From Sphingobacteriales bacterium (GTDB lineage: Bacteria > Bacteroidota > Bacteroidia > Chitinophagales > JADIYW01): 64,000 nucleotides of DNA. The stretch covers positions 3,588 to 67,587 of the forward strand of contig CANHGL010000002.1 in the NCBI GenBank assembly GCA_947460245.1, given 5' to 3'. This document shows, in pieces, positions 11,641-60,200 of the stretch. Made by a program: the position numbers and the translations under genes. Within the stretch, counting starts at the first letter, position 1. The number at the start of each line of letters is the position of its first letter. Below the pieces are notes generated by a model. That model was given only the letters and a program-made list of their open reading frames with translations, made no database searches and was not told the origin of the DNA.

Positions 11641-11961
11641 ATGAAAGACGTTATAATAGGCATTCCGATACAGTGGTATATTTATCTAAGTGTTACACTT
11701 TTTTGCATTGGGGTAATGGGAGTTTTATACAGAAGAAACGCCATTATTATATTTATGTGTGTAGAGATGATGTTGAATGCAGTTAATTTACTGATGGTTG
11801 CTTTTTCCCGTTACTTGGGAGATAGCAGTGGTCAGGTATTTGTATTTTTTGTAATGGTTGTTGCAGCTGCTGAGGTGGCAGTTGGACTTGCCATTTTAAT
11901 GATGATATTCAGAAATACTAAGTCTACAGATATTGATGCATTGAATAAATTAAAATGGTAA
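11641..11961 (+). CDS. nuoK: NADH-quinone oxidoreductase subunit K
   Basis: 106-aa three-TM protein with [11 protein letters not shown] and [12 protein letters not shown]. Confidence 0.9.
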
Positions 11962-11984
11962 AGTTGAAATTAAATTATAGAATT

Positions 11985-24684: not shown

Positions 24685-24771
24685 TTTGCAGATAGAATAA
24701 AAAAGCAGTTTATCGGTATTATTTTAAACAATAACATCGATTTGTGCTTTTATATGTATACTATACCGTAT

Positions 24772-27165
24772 ATGAGAAATTTTCTGCTTATTTTTTTATT
24801 TTCCCCTCTTTTTATGCTTGGTCAAACCGGTGTAATTGAGGGTCGAGTTTTTGATGAAATTAATAACGAGCCCGTAATTGGAGCTAATGTTGTTTTATTA
24901 GGAACGCCATCAGGTGCTACTACAGATTTGGAAGGAAATTATCGAATTGATGGGCTGGTTGCCGGTTTATACAATATAGAGGTTTCTTATGTAGGCTATC
25001 AGGTACAAACTCGCTTTGAGATTCAGGTAAGTAATACCAAGTCTGTCCGTGCGGATTTCGCTATGAAGCAATCTGCTCAGATGATAGACTCCGTAGTAAT
25101 TAAAGCTAACCCCTTTGATAAAAAATTAGAGTCGCCAATTTCTATTACTTCTATTGGCGTAAATGAAATCCAGCGTAACCCTGGAGGCAACAGAGATATC
25201 TCAAGAGCAATAAAAAATTTACCAGGTGTTTCATCCGGTTTTGGATTTAGAAATGATTTGCTTGTGAGAGGTGGATCTCCTAACGAGAATCGTTTCTATT
25301 TAGATGATATTGAAATTCCAACGATTAATCACTTCTCTACGCAGGGAGCGAGCGGAGGAAGTAACGGCTTACTAAATGTAGATTTTATAAGTAATGCAGA
25401 TTTTTATACAGGAGCTTTCCCGGCTAACAGGGGTAATGCATTGAGTTCTGTATTACAACTTACCCAAAGAGAAGGCCGAAAAGATAGAGTAGGTTTTACT
25501 TTTACGCTCGGAGCGAGCGAAGCTGGACTAACATTGGAAGGTCCTTTTACAAAAAAGAAGAAAACGACTTTCTTATTTAATGCGAGATATTCTTATCTCC
25601 AGTTTTTATTTAAAGCGTTTAAATTACCTTTCCTTCCTACATATTCGGATATACAATACAAAGTAGTTCATAAATTCAATAACAAACACGATATCACTTT
25701 TATTGGGGTAGGTGCTTACGACTACCTTCGATTGAATCTAAAGCAAAATGAAACAGATGCGCAAAAGTTTTTATTGAGAAATATTCCATATCAGGATCAG
25801 TGGAATTATACAGTTGGAGCTCGCTATCGTTATTTTATGAAGAATAGTTATATGCTCTTCGTAGTAAGTAGAAGTTATTTTAATAATAATATTTACAAGA
25901 ATAAAGATAATGATGTTAACCAGCCCAGGCTATTTGATTTGAAGTCTACGGAAGCAGAAAATAAACTCAGATTTGAGCATGTGATACGTGCTAAAGAATA
26001 CAAGATAAATTATACAGCAAATTACGAATACGCACGTTATACAACAGCTACTGCCAATAAGATTACAATTGGTGATACAGTTCTGAGTATAGCCTACAAC
26101 AGCAAACTGAATTTACAGAAATATGGATTTTCAGCACAAGTCAGTAAGGCCTATTTAAATGAGCGCTTAAGCCTTTCTTTAGGCCTTCGTGCGGATGGTA
26201 ATAATTATAACAAGAAAATGGCAAATCCATTCAGGCAACTCTCTCCAAGATTCTCTGCTTCTTATGCATTCACCAATTACTTAAGTCTGAATTTTAATAC
26301 GGGATTGTATTATCAATTACCGCCTTATACTACATTGGGTTTTAAAGATAATGCAGGGGTATTGGTGAATAAGGATAATCTGGATTATATACGTAATGTT
26401 CAGGTAGTAGGAGGTATTTCATCTACTATCAATTCCAGTAATACCAAATTCTCTTTAGAAGGTTTTTATAAGCGCTATTATAATTATCCAATGCTTTTGA
26501 ATAAAGGTATTTCATTAGCCAATTTAGGCGGTGATTTTGGATGGGTAGGTGATGAGCCTGCTACTTCTACCAGCAATGGTAAAACCTATGGAGTAGAGTT
26601 TTCTGTTCAGCAGAAATTATGGAAAGGAGTATTTGGGATAGTTTCTTACACGTGGTACAGAAGTTTATTTACGGATATCAGAGGAGTGTACAACTCCAGC
26701 AGCTGGGATAGCAGGCATGTAGCCAATATAACCGTAGGATATAAGTTCAAGCGTAATTGGGAAATTGGTGTTAAATGGAGTATTCAGGGAGGTCTGCCTT
26801 ATACTCCGGATGATTCTACTGCCTTTGCTTATGTTAGCGTATTTAATGCCAATGGAGGTATTCCGGTAAAAGATTATTCTAAGCTAAATAGTTTGCGTAC
26901 CAAAGTGCAGCATGGGATGAACTTACGCGTTGATAAAAAGTGGTATCTCAAGAAAATTAATATCAATCTATATTTAGATGTAACGAATGTATACAACGCC
27001 AAGGATGTAACACCTGCTAATTTAGATGTAGTAAGGGATGATGCGGGTATTCCGGTTATCAGTAATCCTGGTGCTCCGGCCAACGAACAGCGCTATCAAT
27101 TGCAATACCTTAAATCTAATGGATCTAATGTATTGCCTACTGTAGGGTTGATACTGGAATTATAG
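24772..27165 (+). CDS. TonB-dependent receptor with N-terminal CarboxypepD_reg-like domain
   Basis: Signal peptide MRNFLLIFLFSPLFMLGQ, then CarboxypepD_reg (GRVFDEINNEPVIGANVVLLGT..GATTDLEGNYRI). A plug region follows (PISITSIGVNEIQRNPG) and the protein has a beta-barrel-like aromatic C-terminus. The ORF track begins at TTG 24742. Confidence 0.85.
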   Translation: MRNFLLIFLFSPLFMLGQTGVIEGRVFDEINNEPVIGANVVLLGTPSGATTDLEGNYRIDGLVAGLYNIEVSYVGYQVQTRFEIQVSNTKSVRADFAMKQSAQMIDSVVIKANPFDKKLESPISITSIGVNEIQRNPGGNRDISRAIKNLPGVSSGFGFRNDLLVRGGSPNENRFYLDDIEIPTINHFSTQGASGGSNGLLNVDFISNADFYTGAFPANRGNALSSVLQLTQREGRKDRVGFTFTLGASEAGLTLEGPFTKKKKTTFLFNARYSYLQFLFKAFKLPFLPTYSDIQYKVVHKFNNKHDITFIGVGAYDYLRLNLKQNETDAQKFLLRNIPYQDQWNYTVGARYRYFMKNSYMLFVVSRSYFNNNIYKNKDNDVNQPRLFDLKSTEAENKLRFEHVIRAKEYKINYTANYEYARYTTATANKITIGDTVLSIAYNSKLNLQKYGFSAQVSKAYLNERLSLSLGLRADGNNYNKKMANPFRQLSPRFSASYAFTNYLSLNFNTGLYYQLPPYTTLGFKDNAGVLVNKDNLDYIRNVQVVGGISSTINSSNTKFSLEGFYKRYYNYPMLLNKGISLANLGGDFGWVGDEPATSTSNGKTYGVEFSVQQKLWKGVFGIVSYTWYRSLFTDIRGVYNSSSWDSRHVANITVGYKFKRNWEIGVKWSIQGGLPYTPDDSTAFAYVSVFNANGGIPVKDYSKLNSLRTKVQHGMNLRVDKKWYLKKININLYLDVTNVYNAKDVTPANLDVVRDDAGIPVISNPGAPANEQRYQLQYLKSNGSNVLPTVGLILEL

Positions 27166-32252: not shown

Positions 32253-33815
32253 ATGGTATCAGTTTTTAAATTTGGAATAGATCATCTTACCGTAGAAATT
32301 TGTATCGGTTTATTAAATAAAAAGATAAGCGGTATTTTAGATGGTGAGGCAAGAAGTAATATTCTCCGTTCACAAGATTATGTAAATGCAATAGTAGAAA
32401 AGGATAAAACGGTATATGGTATAAATACAGGTTTTGGGATTCTATCTAATAAAAAGATTTCGAAAGAAGATACAAAAACGCTTCAGTATAAGATTCTACA
32501 AAGCCATAGTGTAGGAGTGGGCCAGCCTGTGCCTTTAGATATTACCCGCTTAATGCTAATTACTAAATTACATGCCTTGGCAAAAGGTTATTCCGGTGTC
32601 CAGTTGCCTACCTTAGAACGTTTGTTATGGCATTTTGAAAATGATGTAATTCCCGTTGTTCCGGAAAAAGGTTCAGTGGGCGCTTCAGGTGATCTGGCTC
32701 CTTTGGCACATCTCTGTTTGCCACTAATTGGTTTGGGAGAAGTCTATTACAAAGGGGAGCGTATATCCACAGACATAGTTTTCCAAAAAGAAAACCTAAA
32801 GCCTGTTGCTTTAGGAAACAAGGAAGGTTTAGCGTTGATAAATGGTACTCAGTTTATTTTATCTTATGCAGTAAAGAATGTTCAGCGTTTGCATAACTGT
32901 ATGGATGCTGCTGATATTATTGGTGCTATGACTTTAGAATCTTTACAGGGCACCAAGGCTCCATTTGATGCCAGGTTGCATGACCTAAGGCCATTTGATG
33001 GGAACAAATTAGTTGCACAACGTTTGCGATTATTGTTAGAAGATTCTGAAATTATGCATAGTCATGTAGATTGCGATAGAGTGCAAGATCCCTACAGTTT
33101 GCGATGTATGCCCCAAGTTCATGGTGCTACCCGAAATGCATGGTTGCATTTAAATCAGCTTACTGAAATTGAATTGAATTCAGTTACTGATAATCCTGTA
33201 ATCTTTGGTGAGGATGATACTATAAGTGGTGGTAATTTTCATGGACAGCCATTAGCACTCCCGCTAGATTATTGTTGTTTTGCTGCAGCGGAGTTGGGAA
33301 ATATTTCTGATAGAAGATGTTATTTATTGCTGGAAGGTAAGTATGGACTTCCGATGCTACTGATGAATGATGTTGGACTAAACAGCGGGTTTATGCTTCC
33401 GCAGTATACTACGGCTGCTTTAGTTACAGAAAATAAAACCTTATGCTTTCCGGCAAGCGCAGATAGTATTCCAACTTCTCTGGGACAAGAAGATCATGTA
33501 TCAATGGGAAGTATCAGCGGAAGGAAGTTATTTACGGTATTGGATAACTTAGAATATATTTTAGCCATTGAATTGATGGCGGCTGCCCAGGCGATTGAAT
33601 TTAGAAAGCCATTAAAAAGTTCCAGCGTGCTTGAGGCAGCGCATAGTTTTGTTAGAGAGAAGGTTTCCTTTGCAAGTGAAGACAGGATTTTTTCTGAAGA
33701 TATTAATCTGATTAAGCAAATGGTTACAGAGGGCGCATTCGTAGATGCTGTTACTCAATTTACCATTCAAAATGGCATATCATTAAATAAAGATTTTAAA
33801 GAATTTGAGTTATAA
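32253..33815 (+). CDS. hutH: Histidine ammonia-lyase
   Basis: 520 aa with the MIO-forming [15 protein letters not shown], plus YGINTGFG and QEDHVSMG. Confidence 0.95.
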
Positions 33816-33826
33816 AAAATAGAATT

Positions 33827-35494
33827 ATGTTACAAAGTTTTTTAGACAAATATGCTGCACATCCTAGCTACAGCGCACCTAGGGGGAATACGTTAAATGC
33901 TAAGTCTTGGCAAACAGAAGCACCACTGAGAATGTTATTGAATAATCTGGATGCTGAGGTTGCAGAAAATCCTGAGGAATTGGTGGTGTATGGTGGTATA
34001 GGACAGGCTGCACGCAATAAGGAATCCCTTCAAAAGATTATTAAACTTTTATTGGAGCTAGATGAAGATCACTCTTTATTAGTTCAAAGTGGTAAGCCGG
34101 TTGGTATTGTTCGCACACATCCACAGGCTCCTAGAGTATTGATTGCAAACTCCAATCTGGTGCCTAAATGGGCAACGTGGGATCATTTTTATGAGCTCAG
34201 AGAAAAGGGTTTAATGATGTATGGTCAGATGACAGCAGGCTCGTGGATATACATAGGCTCCCAGGGTATCGTTCAAGGCACCTACGAAACCTTCATGGAG
34301 TGTGGAAGACAGCATTTTAATGGAAGCCTGGAAGCTAAATTGGTAGTCACTGCAGGGTTAGGCGGTATGGGTGGTGCTCAGCCGCTTGCAGCTACAATGG
34401 CAGGGGCTACTTTTCTTGCAGCTGATATCAACCCTGTGAGTATACAAAAACGTATAGATACGAAGTACTTGGATAAAATGACCTATTCCTATGAAGAAGC
34501 TGTAAAGTGGGCATTGGACGCTAAATCTAAAGGTGAAGCTATTTCGATAGGTGTAGTGATGGATGCAGGGGATATGTTAGAGCGTTTACTACAAGATAAT
34601 ATAATTCCGGATGTGTTAACTGATCAAACGTCTGCTCATGATCCTATTAATGGTTATGTTCCTCATGGTATGTCTTTTCAGGCTGCATTAGCATTACGAA
34701 AAGCTGATCCAAATACATACAAAGAGAAGTCAATTATAAGCATGGGTAGGCATGTTCGTTTTATGCTGGAACTTATGAGTCGGGGTGCTGTAACCTTTGA
34801 TTATGGAAATAATATCCGTGCTTATGCCAAGGAGGCGGGTGTAGAAAATGCATTTGATTTCCCGGGGTTTACGCCGGCTTATATACGCTCTTTATTTTGT
34901 GAAGGAAAGGGTCCATTCCGTTGGGTAGCATTAAGTGGAGATCCTAATGATATTTATGAAACGGATAAGGCACTGATGGAATTGTTTCCTGAAAATGAAG
35001 GGATGATTAATTGGTTGCAACAGGCACAAAAAAGAATTGCATTTCAAGGACTACCTGCAAGAATTTGCTGGTTGGGATTGGGAGAGCGCGAAAAAGCTGG
35101 ATTGTTTTTTAATGAGTTGGTGCGCTCCGGAAGGGTGAAGGCTCCAATTGTTATTGGTCGTGATCATCTGGATTGTGGCAGTGTGGCAAGTCCTAACCGC
35201 GAAACCGAAGCTATGAAAGATGGGAGTGATGCCGTAAGTGATTGGACACTGTTGAATTTATTAAGTAATGCCAGTGGTGGTGCTACATGGGTGAGTTTTC
35301 ACCATGGCGGTGGTGTGGGTATGGGATATTCTCAGCATGCTGGAATGGTAGTATTAGCAGACGGCACAGATCGTGCAGCTGCATGCTTAAGCAGAGTTTT
35401 ATTTAATGATCCTGCAATGGGAGTTTTCCGTCATGCAGATGCCGGTTATGAAAAGGCAATAGCCGTAGGAAATTCATTTGGAATAAATATTTAA
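33827..35494 (+). CDS. hutU: Urocanate hydratase
   Basis: 555 aa with [25 protein letters not shown] and [18 protein letters not shown]. Confidence 0.95.
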
Positions 35495-35511
35495 TCCTGT
35501 ATTGATTAGCT

Positions 35512-36744
35512 ATGCTTATTACCAACATCCGCTATTTAGTAAATGTAAGAGAAGAAAATAATTTACTTCGGGGTAAGGCTTTGGCTGATCTTCCGATATT
35601 AGAGAATGCATGGTTGAAAATTGAAAATAATTCTATCGTAGATTATGGCTTGATCTCTTCCTTACAAGAAGCTGATTTTAAACAGAAAGTATTTGATGCC
35701 AAGCAAGCAGTTGTTTTGCCCTCTTGGTGTGATAGTCATACGCACCTTGTGTTCGCAGGCAGTAGAGAAGGAGAGTTTGTAGATAAAATCAGAGGCCTTA
35801 CTTATGAGGCCATAGCAGCAAAGGGTGGTGGTATATTAAATTCTGCAAAGTTACTGAAGGAGACTTCTGAGGAGGTGTTATTGGAGCTGGCTCAGCAAAG
35901 AATAGACCATCTGATACAATTAGGAACGGGGGCGTTGGAGATTAAAAGCGGATATGGATTATCTGTGGATGGGGAGTTGAAGATGTTGCGGGTAATTCAA
36001 CAACTTAAACACCAAAATAATATTCCTATAAAGTCAACTTTCCTTGGAGCACATGCATTTCCTGAAAGCTATAAGTCTAATCGAAAAGGATATATTGAAT
36101 TACTAAAACTTGAAATGTTGCCTAAGATTGCCAGTGAACATCTTGCGGATTATATAGATGTATTTTGTGAGGAAGGTTTCTTTACACAGCAGGAAACAGA
36201 GGAGTTGTGCGAACTGGGTAAGTCATTTGGAATAACCCCAAAAATACACGCCAATCAGTTACATATTTCCGGTGGGGTTCAGGCGGGATGTAAGGTAAGG
36301 GCATTGTCTGTAGATCATTTAGAGACTATAGGAGAAGAAGAAATTCGTTTGCTTGGAGAAGCTAATGCGCCAATTGCTACCTTATTACCAGGTGCTGCTT
36401 TCTTTTTGAGAATGCAATATCCTCCAGTAAAAAAACTAATAGAAAATAATGCGGCTATAGCTATTGCCAGCGATTATAATCCTGGTTCATCTCCATCGGG
36501 AAATATGAATTTTATGATAGCATTGGCTTGCACACAGATGCGTATGTTGCCGGAGGAAGCTATTAATGCTGCTACTATTAACGGTGCTTATGCTATGGGC
36601 GTAGAATCGCTCGTTGGTAGTATTACTCGTGGAAAACGGGCAAACCTTATTTTTACTCAAGCGATTCCTTCCATAGCCTATCTGCCTTATAGTTATGCAT
36701 CTAACCTTATCGATAAGGTGATGATTAACGGACAGTTTCAGTAA
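35512..36744 (+). CDS. hutI: Imidazolonepropionase
   Basis: 410-aa amidohydrolase with metal ligands (CDSHTHLVF, KIHANQL, ASDYNPGSSP). Confidence 0.95.
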   Translation: MLITNIRYLVNVREENNLLRGKALADLPILENAWLKIENNSIVDYGLISSLQEADFKQKVFDAKQAVVLPSWCDSHTHLVFAGSREGEFVDKIRGLTYEAIAAKGGGILNSAKLLKETSEEVLLELAQQRIDHLIQLGTGALEIKSGYGLSVDGELKMLRVIQQLKHQNNIPIKSTFLGAHAFPESYKSNRKGYIELLKLEMLPKIASEHLADYIDVFCEEGFFTQQETEELCELGKSFGITPKIHANQLHISGGVQAGCKVRALSVDHLETIGEEEIRLLGEANAPIATLLPGAAFFLRMQYPPVKKLIENNAAIAIASDYNPGSSPSGNMNFMIALACTQMRMLPEEAINAATINGAYAMGVESLVGSITRGKRANLIFTQAIPSIAYLPYSYASNLIDKVMINGQFQ

Positions 36745-36747
36745 TTT

Positions 36748-36882
36748 TTACCATTCTACTTGTATGCCACCACCATCAGGCGTAGTATGAACCGACCAAT
36801 CTAGTTTCATTTCTAGACGTTGTTCGAGTTCCTCGATGTTAAATGCTTCGTGTAGTTGTTCTTCTTTTTCTTGTGTTTTCAT
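36748..36882 (-). CDS. Candidate RiPP-type precursor peptide A (44 aa): MKTQEKEEQLHEAFNIEELEQRLEMKLDWSVHTTPDGGGIQVEW
   Basis: ATG-initiated ORF 2 nt downstream of the 652-aa gene stop, on the same strand. It is below the ORF-track size cutoff. It shares the block EELEQRLEMKLDW with the 51-aa ORF at 41198-41353; the 39-nt block differs only at 4 synonymous third positions. Confidence 0.7.
   Translation of the reverse strand: MKTQEKEEQLHEAFNIEELEQRLEMKLDWSVHTTPDGGGIQVEW
36796..36834 (-). repeat. Conserved 39-nt leader block, copy A (encodes EELEQRLEMKLDW)
   Basis: 35 of 39 nt are identical to 41261-41299. The differences are gaa/gag, cgt/cgc, cta/ctg and cta/ctg, all synonymous. Confidence 0.9.
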
Positions 36883-36884
36883 AA

Positions 36885-38843
36885 TTAATGTTTTAAGGTT
36901 AAAAATCTATTTAGTGCACTTATTACAGTGCTTGTGGTGATTATTCTGTGCAAATCTTCTATCAGTACATTTTCACCAATATCTGTTTTCTTCCATTCTG
37001 TTATGTCTTCAGGGTTTATGCAATCAGAGGCTGGAATTCTTAGCGCATAACTGGAGTCCCAGGATCCATCTGTGTTTTGTCTGTTTATTAATGCTATTGC
37101 TGATTTTTTCAGTAGGTGATACTGATCAGATGACCATTCTTTGTAATGAGATAAAGCTTTTAAGGTCATTGCAGTATATAGGATATGTTCATTACTGAAT
37201 GCATCTTTACATAAACCATTGTCCTGGATTTGTTCAAATAATAATTCAGCAGTTGATTGACATATTCTTTGCAATTCAGGATGTTGTAAGTTTTTATTGG
37301 CTTCCAAGAGGAGTGTACTGCTATATATCGGACTGGTCCACCAATAGGACTCAAATAACTGATTTGCTTTGTATTTTTTTAGGAAATAGGCTATTAATTT
37401 ATTTTTCTCTTGGGTATAGCCATCAAACTTAGATAACAACAAGAGTGTACCTGCACTTACACACAGGTGACTTTGTGTCCATCCATTAATGTTTTTTTTT
37501 TTAGGATCGTTAAGGTGATTGAGGAGTATCGTCCTATTGTTATATGTGGTAATTCCTCCATCATTTTGTTGGTAGCTTAGCACTGCATTTATTACTTCTT
37601 CTGATTTATATTGCGAGATTAAACCAAGTAGGCTGAAATTACTTGAGTCCGCATCTTCTACCCATCCTTCTATGTAGGGCCATAATATATTTTTTTTCTG
37701 ATGGAGATATTCGATTGCCTTTGGAATTATATTATTTGTTCTATGATTTTCAAACTCCTCCAGTTGATAGAGTACATATCCTGTTGTCCAGTAACCACTA
37801 AGCCATCCATTTACTGGGGAGTCTCTCCATGCACCATTACGCTCTTGTTCTTTTTGGATAAAGTTCAATCCCGATTTTATTTGCTGTAGAATACTTTTTT
37901 TTGCTGTTGGCTCATCTGCTATTTTTATTTTTTCAATAGAGCGTTTGTTTTTTATTTTTATTGATTCCAGATAAAATTCAACCTGAGTTAATACTTGTCT
38001 TATCTCTGTGATTTTCATTTCTATTACTAATTTCCATAAAGTACAGTTAATCTCTGAGCAAATCTCTGCTGCCTGAGCAAGATAGCTGATAGATTGGTTT
38101 AGTAATTTTACAGCATATCCATTTACAAACATTTTTTTCTGCAGATGCTCAATGGGTTTATTGATTAAGAGTTTATTCTTTTTTAGAAGCGTACTTAATG
38201 CAAAATTTGTCTGTTTGTTATTGTAATCTACATTCAAATCAAACAGGTCGTCATAGCATTGTAGCCCACATGAAAACAGTCTATGGGATTTTAGCAATTT
38301 TTGGTGATTATTTAAGCTGATTTTATTGAGCGTGAATAGGGAGTCTATTGCAATTTTTCCAAATGCTGATTTCCGATCAGCCAAGTTCTCAAATTCACTT
38401 TTTTTGAGGTCAAGAATAAATTGCTTGTCCGTGTAGTAAGCACTCAAATACGCTTTTTTTCTTTCTTGCCAGTATCCCCAGAATCTTTGATTATCCTGAA
38501 AAATAGAGGAGAGTATCTTTATACTTTCTTCATGATACCAATTGGATAAAATTATTTCATGTATCCTGTCTGGGTTGTCATTCTTAGTATCTAATTTTTT
38601 ATCAAGAATTAGTAAGTATTTGAAATAGAAGTATCCGGAAATATTTATTTGATTAATTTCTTTATCTCTTTTCTCAGTAAATAAAGATCCATAGCAAAAG
38701 TAAAATAGATTAGGTTCACTATTGATTTCTTTAAAGAGTAATTCTTTAATATTGCAATCTATATTTTGCTTCTTTATGTACGTTAACAGAATCTGTCGCG
38801 ATGCTTCTATATGTTTGTAGATATTATCTTTTAACATTTCCAT
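36885..38843 (-). CDS. Two-domain isoprenoid-type enzyme: N-terminal polyprenyl-synthase/ComQ-like helical region fused to a prenyltransferase/squalene-cyclase-repeat (alpha/alpha toroid) domain
   Basis: 652 aa. The N-terminal half is all-helical and carries Asp-rich motifs YLLILDKKLDTKND and FSCGLQCYDDLFD (compare the FPPS SARM GxxFQxxDDxxD). The C-terminal half has four repeats of the Q-x-x-D-G-x-W type: ERNGAWRD, QQNDGGIT, QDNGLCKD and QNTDGSWD. The function is inferred from motifs only. Confidence 0.55.
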   Translation of the reverse strand: MEMLKDNIYKHIEASRQILLTYIKKQNIDCNIKELLFKEINSEPNLFYFCYGSLFTEKRDKEINQINISGYFYFKYLLILDKKLDTKNDNPDRIHEIILSNWYHEESIKILSSIFQDNQRFWGYWQERKKAYLSAYYTDKQFILDLKKSEFENLADRKSAFGKIAIDSLFTLNKISLNNHQKLLKSHRLFSCGLQCYDDLFDLNVDYNNKQTNFALSTLLKKNKLLINKPIEHLQKKMFVNGYAVKLLNQSISYLAQAAEICSEINCTLWKLVIEMKITEIRQVLTQVEFYLESIKIKNKRSIEKIKIADEPTAKKSILQQIKSGLNFIQKEQERNGAWRDSPVNGWLSGYWTTGYVLYQLEEFENHRTNNIIPKAIEYLHQKKNILWPYIEGWVEDADSSNFSLLGLISQYKSEEVINAVLSYQQNDGGITTYNNRTILLNHLNDPKKKNINGWTQSHLCVSAGTLLLLSKFDGYTQEKNKLIAYFLKKYKANQLFESYWWTSPIYSSTLLLEANKNLQHPELQRICQSTAELLFEQIQDNGLCKDAFSNEHILYTAMTLKALSHYKEWSSDQYHLLKKSAIALINRQNTDGSWDSSYALRIPASDCINPEDITEWKKTDIGENVLIEDLHRIITTSTVISALNRFLTLKH

Positions 38844-39990
38844 ATCGTTTATTCTTTATCAGTTTTATTAATATATGAATAGTGTATCTTGCTAAAACGA
38901 TGCATAGCAATATTGTCTTTATTATATCTTGAATATTTAGAGCTGTACATTTGTCTAGTGTACCAGTGCCATAGGCTATGATATTATATAGTAATAGATT
39001 TTTGTGAATTAATAGGAAATACAAGAGATATACTAAAGCTCCTTTATTAAGTATATAATAAGCGCTTAATAATGTATTTTTTGTACTCCTCAGTTTCTTG
39101 CTAAAAAATTGAATTAAAGCCTCTTCAGAACTATTATGTAAGTTTCGATAGGAACATAAGTCATTTAATATCCAATATCCATCAGATTTGAATATTGGGA
39201 TGAGATTAAAAGTGCATTTCAATAACAGTAGTAATGCGATTGAATATGTATCGTTAAGAGATAAAAAACATCCTGTGCAGTAAGTGGAGCATAAAAACAA
39301 CGCTTCAAAATATACACCTGATATATTGACTATAATTCTTTCTCTTTTATTTAATAACCAAATTCCGGAAACATCTGAGAATGCTACTGGTATAATACCC
39401 ATGTATATTCCTATTCCTATTCCTTTGCTTTTTATACAGTAATTCCGACAAGCAGTGATATGTCCAATTTCATGTAGTAAAGTTGATCCAGTAATTAAGC
39501 AGAAATAAATCGGAATTTGATGGATGTTTATTGGGTGTATGGTCTTAGGGATGTGTAATAAATAAAATAATGTTAAAATCAAAAGTATTAGAAATACAGA
39601 TATTCCATTTCTTTTATAAAATATGGTTAAGTGTTGTATGAGAAAATTAATTTTTTCTGAGGGTATAAGGGTTGTTGCCTTCTTAATATAATTAGTTTGT
39701 GTATTTTGCTTAGTTGATTGGTCTTTATCGTTTAGTATCTTATTACCTAATTGGTTGTAAATGATATGCTTTACTTTTTCGATGCTAATATTGCGTTGGT
39801 GAATGCTGTTATAAGTATCTCGTATAGTTTTAATGCTGTTATTCCCATTAATTAAATTTATGAGAGGTAATACATTTTCAGATATACTAAGATGAAAGCT
39901 GTGCCTATTATCGAATACAATAGCTCCGTATTCCTTGTGTTGTTGGATTTTTATATCCGATCTTAGTATAGGTATCATATCTTCATACAT
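38824..39990 (-). CDS. Peptidase M50 (site-2-protease-like) membrane metalloprotease with N-terminal PqqD/RRE-like domain
   Basis: 388 aa. It has HExxH inside a TM segment (STLLHEIGHITA) and the downstream M50 motif NLIPIFKSDGYWILNDL. The N-terminal ~70 aa (IPILRSDIKIQQHKEYGAIVFDNRHSFHLSISENVLPLINLINGNNSIKTIRDTY) fits the PqqD-like peptide-binding pattern. It overlaps the next gene by 20 nt. Confidence 0.7.
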   Translation of the reverse strand: MYEDMIPILRSDIKIQQHKEYGAIVFDNRHSFHLSISENVLPLINLINGNNSIKTIRDTYNSIHQRNISIEKVKHIIYNQLGNKILNDKDQSTKQNTQTNYIKKATTLIPSEKINFLIQHLTIFYKRNGISVFLILLILTLFYLLHIPKTIHPINIHQIPIYFCLITGSTLLHEIGHITACRNYCIKSKGIGIGIYMGIIPVAFSDVSGIWLLNKRERIIVNISGVYFEALFLCSTYCTGCFLSLNDTYSIALLLLLKCTFNLIPIFKSDGYWILNDLCSYRNLHNSSEEALIQFFSKKLRSTKNTLLSAYYILNKGALVYLLYFLLIHKNLLLYNIIAYGTGTLDKCTALNIQDIIKTILLCIVLARYTIHILIKLIKNKRYGNVKR

Positions 39991-40004
39991 ATAGATAGTT
40001 TAGC

Positions 40005-41144
40005 TTATTTATAAAAATCGATAGAAGGTGTTTCTGGTATTTCGGGTTGGGAATTAATCGTTATTGATTTAAATTTTTTAAGTTGATTGTATATTGGCTG
40101 ACTCAGATCTGCGTATGCTGTTTTAGGTATTTTTAGCTTATTATCCTCTGAAATAGAGCTGGACTGAAAGATAGATTTGGCTTCAAAAGCAATTTTCTCA
40201 TTTTGAGTAGAATATTCTATTTCCATGCTGGACTTTATAGCATGTAAATACCACTTTCCTTTATAAGGCCTGAAGGATATATAAGTATTAGAAGAGATTC
40301 TTTTTTTGCTGATGAATCCACAAGTGTCATTTTTTAATAGCGTAGGCGTTTCGTTGTATTTGTTTTCGCGGAATAAACCTATAACAGCTTTTGATTGCTG
40401 GTCAATAAATAAAATAGTTTTTTGTTTGCCTTCGAGGTATAATTTATAAATCTTATAATTTCCAATGATGCTTTCAGATATATTGTATTCTTTTACCTGA
40501 TCTATGTTTTCGAGTAGAGTGCATAAAGAAGGATATAAATTACTATAGTTAAAAAGAGTATAATAAGATACATATTGTCGGTTGCTATATTTTCCATGGT
40601 TTGAATATTTTATAATATTTTTTGGAATGAATTTATTTTGTTTTCCTGAGATTGATTTTAGTGTAAAGTAATTACAGAGTTCGCCTTCACTCAGTGTTGC
40701 GCTAATAATTTGATTTTGATGTAAAATATACTCATTATAGATGCAGTTTATTTTTAATGGAGTAATACTATAATTGTTAGAGTAATTTTCTATTATTTGT
40801 TTTAAAAGTTCTTTAGGTGTTATGGATAGTATTTTTATTTCATTCAATTCATAAGCATAGGGTATTAGTTCTATATTTTTCATATCTAAGAGTTGAGTAG
40901 TAGTTATTTTTCTTGACTCGTATCCAATACTGCTAAAGACTATTGTGTCATTTGGATCGCAATCATCTATTTTAAACCTGCCATCTTTATCTGTTGTAGT
41001 TCCTGTGTTTTTTTTAACAGCGTAAATATTTACTTCAGAGAGTTTACTGTTATTTTTAGTTTGTATTACAATACCAGATATGGTAAGTGTATAGCTGTAT
41101 ATAGTTATTAGCAAAGCAATAGCTGCTAGCATAGATTTTTTCAT
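40005..41144 (-). CDS. Secreted CarboxypepD_reg-like domain protein of unknown function
   Basis: Signal or anchor MKKSMLAAIALLITIYS, then a CarboxypepD_reg-like fold signature (GIVIQTKNNSKLSEVNIYAVKKNTGTTTDKDGRFKI...IVFSSIGYESRKI). About 270 aa of beta-rich sequence with no recognised motif follow. The ORF-track N-terminal extension to 41264 overlaps precursor B and is not signal-like. Confidence 0.7.
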   Translation of the reverse strand: MKKSMLAAIALLITIYSYTLTISGIVIQTKNNSKLSEVNIYAVKKNTGTTTDKDGRFKIDDCDPNDTIVFSSIGYESRKITTTQLLDMKNIELIPYAYELNEIKILSITPKELLKQIIENYSNNYSITPLKINCIYNEYILHQNQIISATLSEGELCNYFTLKSISGKQNKFIPKNIIKYSNHGKYSNRQYVSYYTLFNYSNLYPSLCTLLENIDQVKEYNISESIIGNYKIYKLYLEGKQKTILFIDQQSKAVIGLFRENKYNETPTLLKNDTCGFISKKRISSNTYISFRPYKGKWYLHAIKSSMEIEYSTQNEKIAFEAKSIFQSSSISEDNKLKIPKTAYADLSQPIYNQLKKFKSITINSQPEIPETPSIDFYK

Positions 41145-41197
41145 AGTAAATACATTAAATAGGGCACACCGAGATTGACGGTGTGCCCATTGAGAAA

Positions 41198-41353
41198 TTA
41201 AGGATAGATGGGAACATTGTAGTTGCCATCTGTCAGAATAATCTGAGGCTGACTGGGCGCCCAATCCAGTTTCATTTCCAGGCGTTGCTCGAGTTCCTCT
41301 ACATGGAACTCATCCAGAAGATAGTCTTCCGGTCTTTCGGTTTTTTCTTTCAT
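41198..41353 (-). CDS. Candidate RiPP-type precursor peptide B (51 aa): MKEKTERPEDYLLDEFHVEELEQRLEMKLDWAPSQPQIILTDGNYNVPIYP
   Basis: ATG-initiated ORF 53 nt upstream of the CarboxypepD_reg-like gene, on the same strand. It shares the leader block with peptide A and has a divergent Cys-free C-terminal region. Confidence 0.7.
   Translation of the reverse strand: MKEKTERPEDYLLDEFHVEELEQRLEMKLDWAPSQPQIILTDGNYNVPIYP
41261..41299 (-). repeat. Conserved 39-nt leader block, copy B (encodes EELEQRLEMKLDW)
   Basis: See 36796-36834. Only synonymous differences separate the copies. Confidence 0.9.
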
Positions 41354-41442
41354 TGCATAATAGTTTTAATAAGCTTACTCTGTTTGTACTTATTTTGTAT
41401 ATTTGCAATACAACAAAACAATGGTTACCAAATCCGTTTTGT

Positions 41443-41471
41443 AAGCCGTCATTTTTAATGATGGCTTTTTT
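41443..41471 (+). terminator. Plus-strand intrinsic-terminator-like hairpin in the upstream region of the peptide operon
   Basis: AAGCCGTCAT-TTTTA-ATGATGGCTT forms a 10-bp stem with one G-U pair, followed by a T-run. On the minus strand the wobble becomes an A-C mismatch and no U-run follows. Confidence 0.45.
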
Positions 41472-41810
41472 GCTGTAATGCATTCTATACCTAATATTAT
41501 AGGTTTTTCAGCATTCACCTAATTCAAGTTAAAAAATTCGGTCCGGACCTACTTTTGCAGAAACTTGAACTAAACTGCAATTCAAACTTAGGGAGGTATT
41601 TAGACAATTCAATTTCAGTTAAACGGATTTTATAACTTAATAAAGCATAATAATTATTTTTGTATAATTATAAATTAAACAAAATCAATATTTTATATTT
41701 TAAATAAAGTGTTATAAAGTAACAATTATTTTATTCATTTATATATTCTTTAACGTAATGTTTATTCTATTTTAAGTGTTTAATAATTAATATTTTAATT
41801 ATTATATACT

Positions 41811-41835
41811 TAAAATATTGTGATTCAATATTTTA
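41811..41835. promoter_or_regulatory. Perfect 10-bp inverted repeat, candidate operator (TAAAATATTG-TGATT-CAATATTTTA)
   Basis: Seen directly in the AT-rich divergent intergenic region. A third CAATATTTTA half-site lies at 41686-41695 and an AATATTTTA at 41789-41797. Confidence 0.35.
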
Positions 41836-41913
41836 ATATAATATTTTGGACATATTCTAATATTATTATTTGTACAAATTGTGTTTTTCGGATGTACTTA
41901 GTGCATAATAAAC

Positions 41914-41921
41914 TAATTTTG
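41914..41921 (+). promoter_or_regulatory. Candidate -7 box (TAATTTTG) upstream of the CDP-alcohol phosphatidyltransferase gene
   Basis: Matches TAnnTTTG 9 nt before the ATG at 41930, which would imply a very short or absent leader. Confidence 0.3.
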
Positions 41922-41929
41922 CGTTGCCT

Positions 41930-42622
41930 ATGGAAAATATCACTACAGAAGAAAAGAAGGTTTTTACAGATAGGAAACGAACTAACATACTAAGAAATTT
42001 AGAACAACCCGTTCTTGTTTTTTTATGTAGAATTTTACCTCGTTTCATAACTCCGGATATGCTTACAGCAACTGGTATATTGGGTTCTTTCATGGTTTTA
42101 TTAGGATTCCTAATAGCTCGTACACCTGAATTAAAAGGATTTCTTTTTTTATCAATTTTTGGATTTGCAGTGAACTGGTTCGGAGATTCTATGGATGGAC
42201 GCATTGCATACTTTAGAGAAACTCCAAGAAAATGGTATGGTTTTGCCTTGGATTGTATGATGGATTGGATGTCATTGGTGACTATAGGTATTGGCTACTA
42301 TTTTTATGTTCAGGGAGACTTTAGAATTTATGTATTTACCTTTTGTTGTGCGTATGCTTGGGCTATGCTCGTGGCTCAGATTAGGTATAAGATTACCAAT
42401 GTATATTCTATAGATTCCGGACTATTGGGCCCAACAGAGGTAAGAGTAATTATTTGTTTAGTTATCCTATCTGAATATCTATGGAGTGGTTCTATGGAGC
42501 TGTTTTCTATAGTGGTGAACATAATACTCATATTAACAAATACTATTGATACGGTTAAGTTGATAAAACTTGGTGATGAACGCGATATAAGCGAACGAAA
42601 ACAGAAGGAGGCAAGTCTGTAA
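41930..42622 (+). CDS. CDP-alcohol phosphatidyltransferase family membrane protein
   Basis: About 230 aa, polytopic. Motif region DSMDGRIAYFRETPRKWYGFALDCMMD resembles D-G-x2-A-R-x8-G-x3-D-x3-D with one extra residue. The ORF track begins at TTG 41924. Confidence 0.75.
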   Translation: MENITTEEKKVFTDRKRTNILRNLEQPVLVFLCRILPRFITPDMLTATGILGSFMVLLGFLIARTPELKGFLFLSIFGFAVNWFGDSMDGRIAYFRETPRKWYGFALDCMMDWMSLVTIGIGYYFYVQGDFRIYVFTFCCAYAWAMLVAQIRYKITNVYSIDSGLLGPTEVRVIICLVILSEYLWSGSMELFSIVVNIILILTNTIDTVKLIKLGDERDISERKQKEASL

Positions 42623-43035
42623 TGAAATTTAATCTAGAATTTAATACATTGGTTAAGGCACAGATTTCTGCATTTATTGGGGGAGTCTTTGATTATGCAG
42701 TTATGATTGCTTGTACTGAGTTACTTGCCATCTATTATGCCCGATCAATTGTAATAAGTGGTCTTCTAGGAGCCTTGGTTAACTTTACTATTAATCGCTA
42801 TTGGACATATAATTCCAATGAGCGGGGGCTCTCAGCTCAACTTACTAAGTTTTACCTGGTTGTCTTAGGGAGTATTTTACTTAAGTCTTACGGCACATAC
42901 TATGTTACAGAGGCCTTTTCTATGGATTATAGAATAACACGTTTGCTAGTTGATCTTTTTGTTTCGATTGGATTCAACTTTGTACTTCAGAAGTATTGGG
43001 TATTTCGAAAGGAGGATGTTTTACAAGCTGATTAG
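42622..43035 (+). CDS. GtrA-like family membrane protein
   Basis: 137 aa with four TM segments and GtrA-type termini (FIGGVFDYAVM..., FNFVLQKYWVFRK). Its start overlaps the upstream stop (TAATG). Confidence 0.8.
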   Translation: MKFNLEFNTLVKAQISAFIGGVFDYAVMIACTELLAIYYARSIVISGLLGALVNFTINRYWTYNSNERGLSAQLTKFYLVVLGSILLKSYGTYYVTEAFSMDYRITRLLVDLFVSIGFNFVLQKYWVFRKEDVLQAD

Positions 43036-43097
43036 CTGCTATATTTTCAGTTGTTATTTTCTTGCTTCTTTTTTGTGCTATTTAATATCTTTACTCC

Positions 43098-44126
43098 ATG
43101 CAAAATTTCATTTTTTATCAAAAGGAAAACTTTCTAGCCTTCACTAAAACAAGACAAGGTGAAAATAAATTAGGGCAGACCATACAGGCTGTTTCTAATG
43201 TTAAAAAATGGAAACAAGAGTTAAAGAGTTCTTCATCTAAGTTTGTTTTAGTAGGTATTCCAGAAGATATAGGTGTTAAGGCTAATTATGGGGTAGGAGG
43301 TGCGCATACCGCCTGGCCTTCTTTTCTTAATGCTTTTTTCAATATTCAGCAAAATCGTTTTTTGGATGGGAAAAGTATAATGCTCTTAGGTTATTTTGAT
43401 TTTTCTTCTCTGCACCTCAAGGCACAGAATAAATCAATAGAATATGTCAGAGATTTAGTGAGCGAAATAGATAAAGAGGTTACAGCTATTGTCCAGGAAA
43501 TTGTTGCGTGTGGTAAAGTTCCAATTATTATTGGGGGAGGCCATAATAACGCATATGGTAATATAAAAGGTGCAGCCCTTGGTTTGCACAGTCTGGGCAA
43601 AGTAAAAGCTAAATCTATAAATGTATTGAACCTTGATGCGCATGCAGATTTGCGTGCGCTGGAAGGTAGGCATTCAGGCAATGCTTTTTCTTACGCTATG
43701 GAGGATGGTTTTCTCAAGAAGTATGGAATGTTAGGTCTGCATGAAAGTTATATTACCGCTGAGATGGATAAGAAGATTTCTCAAAATAAACAGTTAAAAG
43801 CTATATTTTTTGAAGATATTTTTATTCGAAAAATTACTGGATATGAAGAGGCTATAGAGCAGTTATTGACTTTTACTAAGGATACCTATACGGGTATAGA
43901 GGTAGATTTAGATGTAATTGAACAAGTCTTGAGCAGCGCGCTTAGTCCTACAGGCTTGCAAACAATAGATGCAAGAAGATTTATCCATTTGGCGGCAAAA
44001 AGAGGTAAGGTTGCTTATCTACACATATGTGAAGGCGCTGCACAGTTGGACAACGGAATATCCTCCAGCACGACAGGTAAGCTGATAGCTTATTTAGTAA
44101 GTGATTTTATTAAGGCGATAAAGTAA
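43098..44126 (+). CDS. hutG: Formimidoylglutamase (arginase/ureohydrolase fold)
   Basis: 342 aa with Mn-ligand motifs IIGGGHNNAYG, LNLDAHADLR and GIEVDLDV. The assignment to the hut pathway comes from proximity to hutHUI. The family call is firmer than the substrate call. Confidence 0.65.
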   Translation: MQNFIFYQKENFLAFTKTRQGENKLGQTIQAVSNVKKWKQELKSSSSKFVLVGIPEDIGVKANYGVGGAHTAWPSFLNAFFNIQQNRFLDGKSIMLLGYFDFSSLHLKAQNKSIEYVRDLVSEIDKEVTAIVQEIVACGKVPIIIGGGHNNAYGNIKGAALGLHSLGKVKAKSINVLNLDAHADLRALEGRHSGNAFSYAMEDGFLKKYGMLGLHESYITAEMDKKISQNKQLKAIFFEDIFIRKITGYEEAIEQLLTFTKDTYTGIEVDLDVIEQVLSSALSPTGLQTIDARRFIHLAAKRGKVAYLHICEGAAQLDNGISSSTTGKLIAYLVSDFIKAIK

Positions 44127-57205: not shown

Positions 57206-60200
57206 ATGGTAAGGCATTTTTATTCTTTCTTAGTTTTGTTGACTAGCACACTTTTATCTTTCTCAGGAAATGGGATAAAGACAGTGGATTTAGTTAATTC
57301 AGATCTTGATCTTTCTAAAGGGAATAAGAATGCTGCTTATTTCAGATTTGATGGACTAGACTATCTAGTGATAAAGTCAGTACAAGGGGATTTAGCTTCA
57401 TTTGATGGGTCCGGTTTTAAGGTGCAAGCCTATTTGGGAGATGGTCAGTTTCTGGTAGCTGTTAAATCGGAGGATGTTTTAGCCGCTTTAAAAACTATAA
57501 AATATGAAAGGCTTGCTTATTTAGCTCCGAATGCTAAAATTGATGCTTCATTAGATGGACTTACATCCGCTGTTCCTGTTACGGTAGTTTATGGAGCTGC
57601 TGTTAATCAGGAATCAATAGCAGTAATTTGCAGAAAGGAGGGTATTCAATTAATATCTAACGACAAAAAGAATTATCATTTTAACACCTTATTAAATGCC
57701 GGGCAGTTGTCCAGGTTAGCATCTTATCCATTTATCTTTTATATTTCTAAATTCTACGAAAAGAAGAATCCACTCTGTTATGAATCTTCTTTGATGATGG
57801 GTGTCAATCAAATCCAGGAGACAAATCCTTATGGGTATCAACTAAAAGGTGAGGGAATTAATGTTGGGGTTTGGGATGAAGGTGCCTATGGAACGCATAT
57901 CGATTTACCGGTAAATAAGAATTTTGTAATTGATAAGTTGTATAGTTATTCTGCCGTACTAACTCATGCTACCTATGTAGCTGGTTGCTTGGGTGGAGCT
58001 GGTAATATTTCTCCTAATTCAAAAGGGATGGCACCAAGGTGCACCATGTATTATTGGGATTTACTGGATGACTTAATTGGAGAGATACAAACTGGTAAAA
58101 CAGCTTATGATATTGATATATCCAATCACTCCTATAATTTCGCTGCTACTAACTGTAACTCATCCGGATCCTATATTCCAGAGGTCGCTGATTTAGATAA
58201 ATTAGTGTATGACTATCCCAGTTTATTGCCCGTAGTTGCGGTAGGTAATTCCGGTGCTGTTGCTTGTGCTTCTATAACCGATACATTCAGGTCTGTCGAT
58301 ATTGGATTTCAGGGATGTAAAAATGCCATCACTGTGGGATGGTTGTTTGGTAATAAAACTATAGCCACTAATAGTGGAAGAGGGCCGACCTCTGATGGTC
58401 GATTAAAACCTGAATTGGTAGCCAAAGGATGGGGTGTTACTACTACATCGCCCAATAATGGATTCATCACTGCTTATGGATCTTCATTTTCTGCACCTAT
58501 GGTGTCGGGTTTGGCGGCATTGTTGTATGAAAAATACAAACAGCAATTTAGCACTTTGCCTAATGGCGCACTTATTAAATCTATACTTTGTAATACTGCG
58601 AGGGATTTAGGTAGGACTGGTCCGGATTATACTTATGGTTTTGGAATACCGGATGCAAAGTCCGCTGTATCTAGTTTAGTGAATAATTTATTTTATGAGG
58701 GCGATGTATCTCAAGGAGCCTTGGATATTCATGCGGTAACTATTCCTTCTAATACCGCTAAGTTTAAAGTTACACTTTCATGGATAGATAAAGAAGGAAG
58801 TCCAGCTGCCACTACATCTCTGGTCAATAATTTAGATCTAAAGCTTGTAACGCCCACAGGAGATACTGTATTGCCTTGGAAGTTGAACCCTAATGCATAT
58901 AAAAATATAGCTGTAAGGGGAGTGGATAATATCAATAATATTGAACAGCTTACTTTAGATAATCCAATTGCCGGCAATTATACAATAGTTGTAAAAGGAA
59001 GTGCTATACCTTTTGGTCCACAACATTTTGCGGTTGCTTTTATTTCACTAGATAGAAAAGTAGAATTAACCCATCCCAATGGAGGTGAAATTATTGATGC
59101 CGCTAGTTCAAGTGCTATCAGATGGTATGCCAATGGAATCGATACGCTGGCAAAAATAGAATTTTCATCAGATAGTGGCCAGTCATGGCAGACTATTATC
59201 AATAACCAACCAATTTCTACGGAAATATATACATGGTCAGTTCCTGTTGTAGCGAGTAATAAGTGTTTAGTGAAAATTTCATACGGCAACAGTTCTGCTG
59301 TTTCTGCTAAGCCATTTACGGTGGCACCTCAATTAAACTATGCGCAAATAAGTCATGCTGCTTGTGACAGGACAGTTAAAATTAATTGGTCTGCAGTTAA
59401 TAGTGCCTCAGGATATAAAATATATTTGTTTGTAGATTCTGTTTGGACATATATCGGACAGACAAATCTACTTACTTATACTATAAGTAATCTTACAAAT
59501 GGTAAGGCATATTCCTATGCTATTTCTACAATAGTAAATGGAGTAGAAAGTAATCACAGTTATGCAAATTCCTTTACGCCAACATCGAAGGCTTGTTCTA
59601 CGGTAAATGATGTGGGGGTGTATGTTATAAACCGGCCTTTGGGAGGAAGAGTTTTTACATCTTCTGCATTAACAGCTACTCAAAAAATTTCTCTTATTGT
59701 AAAAAACTATGGCACGGCTTCACAGAATTCAATACCGGTTTATTATACCATTAATAACGGGCCTGTCAGAAATCTTCTTTCCACAGATTTGGTTACTACC
59801 AATGACACTTCTATAGTGAGTTTTCAGGTAGATGAAGACTTAAGTGCAGTGGGTAATTATATACTTAAAGCTTGGACAAGTCTTCCAGCAGATGAAAATA
59901 TTTTGAATGATACATTGATTGCTACCATACGTCAATTGCCGAATAGTCCACTTCTTTTACCATTTAAAGATTCTTATGAAACTTTGAATGGTAACTATTC
60001 TTTACCGGTTTTTGGATTAAATGGGCTGGAGTATGCGGACTATAATCCACAACAAGGTGCTCGTTTAAGAAGTAATGAGGGAAATACATTCGCTCTTTCC
60101 GGAAACAGGTGTATTGCTTTAGATAATTTTTCAGGCACTTCTACCCGAAATGAGTTATTCTTTACATTTAATCTTTCTGCATATAAGGATTCAGTTGTGT

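Follow-up and report, generated by a model that had tools for sequence, protein, structure and literature searches.

A five-gene peptide cluster of a Sphingobacteriales bacterium built around a predicted prenyltransferase-cyclase fusion enzyme

Introduction

In a 64,000-nucleotide stretch of the genome of a Sphingobacteriales bacterium (GenBank assembly GCA_947460245.1, contig CANHGL010000002.1, positions 3,588 to 67,587 of the forward strand; hereafter the window, whose own numbering is used throughout), two short genes with a common leader sequence, pepA and pepB, enclose genes for a secreted protein, an M50-type metalloprotease and a 652-aa protein of two domains. What kind of peptide does this cluster make? 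We found that a five-gene cluster for peptides that are synthesised ribosomally and modified post-translationally (RiPPs) is real and well supported at this place. By analogy with the maturase ChrPC, its products are probably ribosomal peptides that bear a cyclised isoprenoid on tryptophan (Trp).

All five genes lie on the minus strand within 36748-41353, in the order pepB, secreted CarboxypepD_reg-like protein, M50 protease, 652-aa enzyme and pepA. Counted from pepB to pepA, the first gaps are of 53 nt and then 14 nt; the M50 gene next overlaps the start of the enzyme gene by 20 nt, and pepA begins 2 nt past the enzyme stop codon. This order and these spacings had been stated in an earlier reading of the bare DNA letters (the sequence-only reading), and the list of open reading frames (ORFs) confirmed them exactly.

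A 2026 review lists two bifunctional prenyltransferase-cyclase ("PC") maturases, ChrPC and NctPC, both from Hubrich et al. (Chem 10:3224, 2024) (PMC13290415). ChrPC combines a P domain that resembles trans-IDS enzymes (trans-isoprenyl diphosphate synthases) with an MstE-like C domain; an internal Trp of the RiPP is prenylated with C10-C20 donors and the chain is then cyclised. NctPC, which acts on a cyanobacterial proteusin by geranylgeranylation followed by cyclisation, joins an ABBA-fold prenyltransferase to an MstE-like cyclase (PMC13290415).

The 652-aa fusion enzyme

The enzyme gene occupies 36885-38843. Pfam recognised SQHop_cyclase_C alone in it, in the C-terminal half. Through phmmer comparison with the PDB, residues 320-646 matched the cyclase MstE (E 4e-13), with EDADS of the enzyme opposite GDADT of MstE. 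An AlphaFold2 (AF2) model was built from an alignment of 24 homologues (26-50% identity) and reached a predicted local distance difference test score (pLDDT) of 90 and a predicted template modelling score (pTM) of 0.84 for the whole protein. When the C domain of this model (residues about 315-652, 36885..37901) was compared with the PDB by Foldseek, MstE was found with E 8e-16, a template modelling score (TM) of 0.83-0.86 and a root-mean-square deviation (rmsd) of 2.5 Å; another match, 6ij1, had TM 0.88. The acid motif E-D397-A-D399-S is located at 37644-37658. Across the 24 homologues D397 is invariant and D399 is kept in at least 90%, and W455, a SYWW block and Q589/D592-G-S are invariant as well.

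For the P domain (residues 1 to about 305, 37929..38843), the nearest structures found by Foldseek were E. coli octaprenyl diphosphate synthase (3wjk, 3wjn and 3wjo, TM 0.70-0.72), 4jyx, hexaprenyl diphosphate synthase and MoeN5. Nine residues of this half, D81, D85, Q195, D198, D199, D202, D206, Q211 and N213, are invariant in the homologues. In profile alignment to farnesyl diphosphate synthase (FPPS), the family pattern l-D-s-l-i-D-k falls on the first aspartate-rich motif (FARM) H-D-D-V-I-D-K, and F-Q-i-y-D-D-v-k-D falls on the second (SARM) F-Q-I-I-D-D-V-L-D. The corresponding motifs of the window enzyme are the FARM-like D81-K-K-L-D85 (38589-38603) and the SARM Q195-C-Y-D-D-L-F-D202 (38238-38261). 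The invariant Q195 stands directly before the SARM, in a motif F/L-Q-x-x-D-D-x-x-D, and in this enzyme group the SARM together with a conserved Gln just before it has been proposed to recognise Trp (PMC13290415). The DDxxD noted in the sequence-only reading is present, but it is the SARM, for which binding of the acceptor Trp, not of the diphosphate donor, is assumed in this enzyme class. The all-alpha indole prenyltransferase Ord1 has 3WJO and PATL_3739 as its nearest structures (PMC12510300); the P domain shares PDB neighbours with Ord1, which we counted in favour of the pathway proposed below.

Considering the sequence and fold matches of each half and the aspartate-rich and acid motifs, we assign the 652-aa protein as a predicted fusion in which a trans-IDS-like prenyltransferase precedes a class II cyclase of the MstE type. 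A polyprenyl-synthase-like part joined to a terpene-cyclase-type part had already been suspected from the letters, and phmmer, Foldseek and the motif alignment bear this out. About 70 full-length homologues have both domains in one polypeptide. No ABBA domain was found in the window enzyme by Pfam, AF2 or Foldseek, and the P domain is modelled as all-alpha.

The family also contains variants that bear on the role of the C domain. Two relatives in otherwise identical modules consist of the P domain only (294 aa in locus L071, 5968-6852; 322 aa in L066, 517-1485), indicating that the module works without a cyclase, and one homologue (P0009) has EDCNS replacing EDADS. Both fit an alternative in which the Trp between leader and core receives a prenyl chain from the P domain as it would from ComQ, the chain stays linear, and the C domain serves as a lipid-binding part or scaffold or acts on another substrate. 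However, the invariance of D397, the near invariance of D399 and the retained MstE-like fold speak against an idle C domain. In addition, a subgroup including L077:5959-7788, with Capnocytophaga bilenii and others, is fused to another kind of C domain, whose class II motif is a canonical D-I-D-D, which argues that catalysis has been selected for; the C domains of ChrPC and NctPC, moreover, are reported to cyclise (PMC13290415). Prenylation without cyclisation is thus unlikely, and cyclisation by the C domain is the reading we keep.

Enzyme-family variants were listed across L071, L066, L077, L065, L073, L076, L079, L012 and L014. L012 carries two full-length enzymes in tandem, and L014 carries two complete modules side by side.

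Precursor peptides

pepB (51 aa, 41198..41353) and pepA (44 aa, 36748..36882) were identified as ORFs and by a family profile, and both are already genes in the public annotation (NCBI/ENA). They have in common the stretch F-[NH]-[IV]-EELEQRLEMKLDW and diverge thereafter. In pepB the leader ends ...FHVEELEQRLEMKLD, followed by the junction Trp31 and the core APSQPQIILTDGNYNVPIYP. In pepA the leader ends ...FNIEELEQRLEMKLD, followed by the junction Trp29 and the core SVHTTPDGGGIQVEW, which contains a second, C-terminal Trp.

Over the 16 shared leader codons, pepA and pepB have four differences, of which four are synonymous and none is non-synonymous, indicating purifying selection on the translated sequence. 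When the peptide-family profile was run against all six-frame stop-to-stop segments of the window, only pepA (E 9e-13) and pepB (6.5e-12) were found, and the next segment had E 0.52. Near-identical orthologues exist in other metagenomes, P0052 for pepB and P0053 for pepA; P0053 differs from pepA by one residue in the core. Taking together the synonymous-only differences, the unique profile matches, the orthologues elsewhere and the public gene calls, the shared leader is not due to chance.

A HMMER search of the whole library with the two window peptides gave 18 further small peptides, including near-orthologues of both, namely ...SVHTTPNGGGIQVEW and ...SPSGAQIGVTDGNSYVPIYP. In the window lineage (P0052-P0058 compared with pepA and pepB), two core types recur across metagenomes, one ending in V-E-W, V-Q-W or G-E-W with a C-terminal Trp and the other in Y-P or V-P. 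Since these types recur and orthologous cores are conserved in other metagenomes, the cores are also under selection. The peptides of this lineage share an unusual M-K-x-D-W junction, with four residues between R-L-E and Trp against two or three in most family members.

Four long proteins also matched the two-peptide profile: P0051 (2657 aa), P0057, P0064 and P0065, one of them at E 6e-20 with no matched stretch reported. These matches are probably E/L-rich repeats or composition artefacts.

Neither core contains Cys, and Pfam found no radical-SAM, YcaO, Lan, ATP-grasp or ABBA domain in the cluster proteins; both points agree with what had been read from the letters. A lanthipeptide was rejected on the lack of Cys in the cores, the lack of a Lan domain and a toroid domain that resembles terpene cyclases and not LanC. 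Readings as a sactipeptide, YcaO or ABBA-prenyltransferase cluster were dismissed since Pfam and NCBIfam showed none of the defining domains.

Conservation across related loci

Scanning one genome per GTDB species revealed at least 88 relatives of the enzyme. We fetched 80 of the loci and compared them, together with the window, as a set of 81. The hosts are mostly Bacteroidota (Flavobacterium, Tenacibaculum, Kordia, Aquimarina, Pedobacter, Hymenobacter, Chitinophaga, Spirosoma, Chryseolinea, Marivirga and Capnocytophaga), and some are metagenomic bins under other labels, e.g. L017, L040, L057 and L072. Chryseolinea serpens has a homologous locus (L062), and there is no Chryseobacterium among the 80 loci.

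After ORF clustering, the enzyme was present in all 81 loci, the M50 protease, adjacent to the enzyme, in 78 and the secreted protein in 59, and any other family in at most 14. An iterative profile seeded with pepA and pepB had 107 small ORFs after its first round and converged on 116, spread over 74 of the 81 loci. Their consensus reads F-x-V-EELE-x-R-[LYM]-E-[MFN]-x(1-2)-W and leads into a hypervariable core rich in G, T, S and V (median 21 residues). Trp is present in every one of the 114 motif-bearing precursors, exactly one Trp in 95 of them, and it stands two or three residues past R-L-E in 102 (four in the window peptides). More than 100 different cores were found among the 80 loci examined. 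The layout of conserved leader and variable core and the invariant Trp as candidate acceptor had been put forward in the sequence-only reading, which also named the company of such small ORFs with the enzyme and the M50 gene in other genomes as a check; across these loci all three were seen.

The order of the genes is not constant. In Flavobacteriia it is precursor(s), secreted protein, enzyme and M50, and in Cytophagia and Sphingobacteriia it is enzyme, M50, precursor(s) and secreted protein. The order in the window (peptide, secreted protein, M50, enzyme, peptide) is unlike that of all 80 fetched loci and is shared only with the closest metagenomic relative. That the linkage persists through this shuffling speaks strongly for a functional module. 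Its four components are all without a curated model in Pfam or NCBIfam.

These counts also bear on a free small-molecule pathway, in which the enzyme would be a bifunctional prenyl diphosphate synthase and class II cyclase, and the small ORFs and the protease would belong to something unrelated, e.g. a bacteriocin system. Bifunctional prenyltransferase-cyclase terpene synthases are described as common in bacteria and fungi in one preprint (bioRxiv 10.64898/2026.08.29.748031), and both aspartate-rich motifs known from chain-elongating synthases are retained in the P domain. Against it stand the Trp-bearing precursors beside the enzyme in 74 loci, the RRE-like M50 protein (see below) in 78, and the tight packing of the enzyme gene with pepA and the M50 gene in the window. 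The FARM of the enzyme is degenerate, and MstE-type cyclases, going by the titles of PDB entries 6sbc, 6sbd and 6sbg, act on prenylated arenes, not on diphosphates. We consider a free terpenoid very unlikely and hold to a peptide-bound product.

The M50 protease and its RRE-like domain

The M50-type intramembrane zinc metalloprotease (388 aa, 38824..39990) was assigned through Pfam, NCBIfam, AF2 and Foldseek. It has HEIGH at residues 173-177 (39460-39474) and the motif N-x-x-P-x-x-x-x-D-G, with N262, P265 and D270-G271 (39178-39207); these residues are invariant or nearly so in 36 homologues. The Pfam Peptidase_M50 score of 26.3 is slightly under the cut-off of 27.2. The best NCBIfam matches, over residues 16-304, were the daptide intramembrane metalloprotease NF041824 (E 1e-21; 77.6 bits, cut-off 300) and the YydH/LiaK epipeptide maturation metalloprotease NF058609 (E 3e-18; 66.4 bits, cut-off 225). 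Both scores are far under the cut-offs; the protein belongs to a family of its own, which has no model and is linked to the PC enzymes. It is presumed to be the leader peptidase.

The top Foldseek match of the modelled protein was the site-2 protease SpoIVFB. Its N-terminus (residues 1-85, 39736-39990) was modelled as strands 13-18, 22-27 and 32-36 followed by helices 41-45, 53-64 and 70-81 (pLDDT 57-86). The other small-domain matches were nearly all RiPP recognition elements (RREs): lasso B1 with leader (6jx3_B, probability 1.00, rmsd 2.7 Å), TbiB1 with leader, TruD/LynD, SuiB, SkfB and TigE. From this model an RRE at the N-terminus is likely but not proven. By the positive-inside rule the domain is placed in the cytoplasm. 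The daptide preprint contains no discussion of an RRE in its protease.

Since M50 and CPBP-type membrane proteases also occur in loci of unmodified bacteriocins, the peptides might be leader-bearing bacteriocins or signals that the M50 protein merely cleaves, while the fusion enzyme does another job in the cell. That account leaves unexplained the Trp at the leader/core junction of every precursor. It also leaves unexplained why, in Flavobacteriia, Cytophagia, Sphingobacteriia and Chitinophagia alike and through the changes of gene order, the linkage to a Trp-prenyltransferase-like domain is strict. Unmodified peptides are hence highly improbable here, and we continue with modification at Trp.

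A second M50-family gene often follows the secreted-protein gene in Cytophagia-type loci (L034, L036, L039, L050, L051, L053, L054 and L078), so that those modules have two proteases.

The secreted CarboxypepD_reg-like protein

Between pepB and the M50 gene lies a gene of 375-379 aa, supported by its ORF, Pfam and conservation of the locus. The mechanical ORF extends to a TTG at 41264 and overlaps pepB; from the ATG the protein has 379 aa (40005..41144), and the database gene call has 375 aa. A Sec-type signal peptide was read from the sequence (MKKSMLAAIALLITIYSYTLTISG). Pfam found CarbopepD_reg_2 (PF13715, E 2e-14), and about 85 residues (about 21-105) resemble the N-terminal extension (NTE) of SusC; the family profile matches only the NTE of SusC structures (8aa4, E 2e-20). 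For the C-terminal 270 aa or so, profile searches of PDB, Pfam and NCBIfam gave no match. The module has a fourth conserved component in the secreted protein.

A SusC/RagA TonB-dependent transporter was rejected for this gene: it has the NTE-type domain only, in 379 aa, with no plug and no 22-strand beta-barrel. A TonB-dependent receptor is encoded 13 kb away (24742-27165, plus strand) and has an N-terminal CarboxypepD_reg-like domain of the same type; no link between the two was established.

Hairpin after the precursor genes

A GC-rich hairpin lies 3' of pepB, between it and the secreted-protein gene (41162..41188, minus strand). Its stem has 10 bp with eight G-C pairs and a folding energy of -21.1 kcal/mol (z -5.9); none of 200 shuffles reached this stability. 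In the related loci (L001-L080), a structure of -15 kcal/mol or lower occurs within 70 nt downstream of 65% of the precursor genes against 16% of other ORFs (Mann-Whitney p 7e-16). No significant hairpin was found downstream of pepA (z -1.3). The pepB hairpin probably serves the precursor mRNA as an attenuator or as a stabiliser of the transcript, and the precursor hairpins are consistent with a higher transcript dose for the precursor than for the enzyme.

Proposed pathway

Starting from the genes, the motif and their conservation, pepA and pepB would be translated as precursors with an acidic helical leader, F-x-V-EELE-x-R-L-E, followed by the junction Trp. In the cytoplasm the P domain would move a polyprenyl chain of C10-C20 from housekeeping pools onto this Trp, as its fold, its motifs and the chemistry of ChrPC, ComQ, PalQ and Ord1 suggest. 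The FARM-like aspartates would hold the Mg-diphosphate donor and Gln-x-x-DDxxD would position the indole. The EDAD acid motif of the C domain may then protonate the terminal double bond, turning the chain into a polycyclic terpene, as MstE does on a prenylated arene. The lipidated precursor would partition to the inner membrane, where the M50 protease may grip the leader by its cytoplasmic RRE-like domain and remove it. For the secreted protein we might speculate, from its co-occurrence, that it handles the mature lipopeptide outside the cytoplasm, where it might carry, export or anchor the product or provide immunity. The products may be membrane-active antimicrobials or signals.

Several observations weigh against this pathway. 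In the enzyme, the FARM is DxxxD and the second Asp of the canonical DDxxD is absent. The sequence match of the P domain to solved prenyl synthases is marginal (E 0.42), and for that reason its assignment rests on fold and motifs. D109 of MstE may correspond to D397 or to D399. We searched for a prenyl diphosphate synthase gene and found none in the cluster or elsewhere in the window; the donor is assumed to come from a housekeeping pool. A transporter was also sought in the window and not found, and no transporter family is conserved with the module among the 81 loci. The modification site of pepA is ambiguous because pepA has two Trp. For the M50 protein, the AF2 model is moderately confident (pLDDT 72) and the Foldseek E-values to RREs are weak (0.1-4). 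A PqqD-like RRE had been proposed on this protein from the letters; at the level of fold (AF2, Foldseek) the proposal gained support, whereas by sequence it is not supported, as Pfam PqqD matches just two of 36 family members and the N-terminal profile found no RRE in the PDB, only noise (EF-hand, Lon). Finally, the likeness to ChrPC is drawn from its published description.

Genomic setting

The G+C content is 0.28-0.29 across 38-42 kb against about 0.36 in the surroundings. The closest metagenomic relative, with an enzyme identity of 48%, agrees with the window in insertion site, gene order and flanking genes; from the shared site and order we take the cluster to be an old resident, not a fresh insertion. 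A sigma-70 promoter scan gave results no better than shuffles, and such a scan does not suit Bacteroidota.

The cluster is embedded, on the opposite strand, in a histidine-utilisation locus (32253-44126). On one flank are hutH (32253-33815), hutU (33827-35494) and hutI (35512-36744). On the other are genes for a CDP-alcohol phosphatidyltransferase-like protein (41924-42622), a GtrA-like protein (42622-43035) and an arginase-family hutG-like protein (43098-44126).

Elsewhere in the window, on the plus strand, an OmpA-family gene (11955-12866) is found within the NADH dehydrogenase (nuo) operon, flanked by the genes for chain 6 (11108-11608) and chain 5 (12869-14770). A response-regulator receiver is fused to a cyclic-nucleotide-binding domain and a Crp-type helix-turn-helix (35-1093), and a subtilase-family protein of 1745 aa (57206-62443) was assigned over residues 215-480 only.

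Significance

In the literature surveyed, RiPPs with cyclised isoprenoids have been known only since 2024, and two maturases have been characterised so far. The 2024 abstract of Hubrich and colleagues reportedly said that genome data predicted cyclic isoprenoid units for several RiPP families. The claim of the sequence-only reading that the cluster matches no recognised RiPP class is outdated, since ChrPC-type fusion maturases acting on a RiPP Trp were described in that year; the mechanism it proposed was essentially right. The cluster is most likely a new, uncharacterised example of known chemistry, not a new class. It is a possible but doubtful further step to regard the Bacteroidota-wide four-gene module as a distinct, undescribed terpene-RiPP branch with its own maturation and export logic. 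In such a branch the junction Trp may be lipidated, the M50 protein may cut inside the membrane, and the secreted protein may be a periplasmic carrier, an outer-membrane targeting factor or an immunity factor for the terpenoid lipopeptide.

As an example of the ChrPC type, the cluster places a ChrPC-like architecture at the centre of a conserved four-component module, with two predicted products in the window. The leader motif and the Trp give a simple handle for genome mining, and the natural P-only and alternative-cyclase variants allow comparison of the chemistry. Two conserved accessory proteins, the M50 protease and the secreted protein, are flagged for the processing and handling of a terpenoid lipopeptide. 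Cultured carriers of the module include Flavobacterium hydatis DSM 2063, Tenacibaculum ovolyticum DSM 18103, Chryseolinea serpens DSM 24574, Marivirga tractuosa and Spirosoma panaciterrae DSM 21099.

Comparison with known systems

The accessory proteins have partial counterparts. The daptide and YydH/LiaK proteases have the same zinc-site motifs as the window M50 protein and the same setting in a RiPP operon. The NTE of SusC/RagA and BamP has a CarboxypepD_reg-like domain as in the secreted protein, which is without plug and beta-barrel.

In the systems ComQ/ComX (Bacillus) and PalQ/PalX (Paenibacillus), a ribosomal peptide is prenylated on a Trp by a trans-IDS-like enzyme, and the SARM and the upstream Gln recognise this Trp (PMC13290415). 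The comparison with ComQ/ComX in the sequence-only reading was hence apt for the first step, prenylation. However, ComQ and PalQ are stand-alone enzymes without a cyclase domain, while the window enzyme is a fusion, and those systems are of Bacillota, while the window cluster is of Bacteroidota. ComX sits in the comQXPA operon with a ComQ of about 300 aa, the ComA regulator and the sensor kinase ComP, a kinase which the window cluster does not share, and the ComX operon does not share the M50 and secreted partners. A ComQ/ComX quorum-sensing system was rejected for the window because of the 652-aa fusion, the conserved M50 and secreted-protein neighbours and the lack of a two-component system.

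For the C domain, the merosterolic acid cyclase MstE (6sbb-6sbg) is the best match of residues 320-646 in both sequence (about 21% identity) and structure, with the acid motif D-A-D-[ST]-[ST] in common. The polyprenyl chain that MstE cyclises is already borne by an aromatic ring, similar to the step presumed here. It is, however, a stand-alone cyanobacterial enzyme for a small-molecule prenyl-benzoate, whereas the window C domain is fused and its presumed substrate is a peptide-bound prenyl-Trp. NctPC resembles the window enzyme in its MstE-like C domain and its Trp acceptor and differs in its P domain, which is ABBA where that of the window enzyme is all-alpha.

The closest likeness in architecture is to ChrPC: one polypeptide with a trans-IDS-like N-terminus and an MstE-like C-terminus, an adjacent precursor bearing Trp, and predicted prenylation of that Trp with later cyclisation of the prenyl chain. 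All the architectural features of ChrPC that we compared, including the Gln (Q195), are present in the window enzyme.

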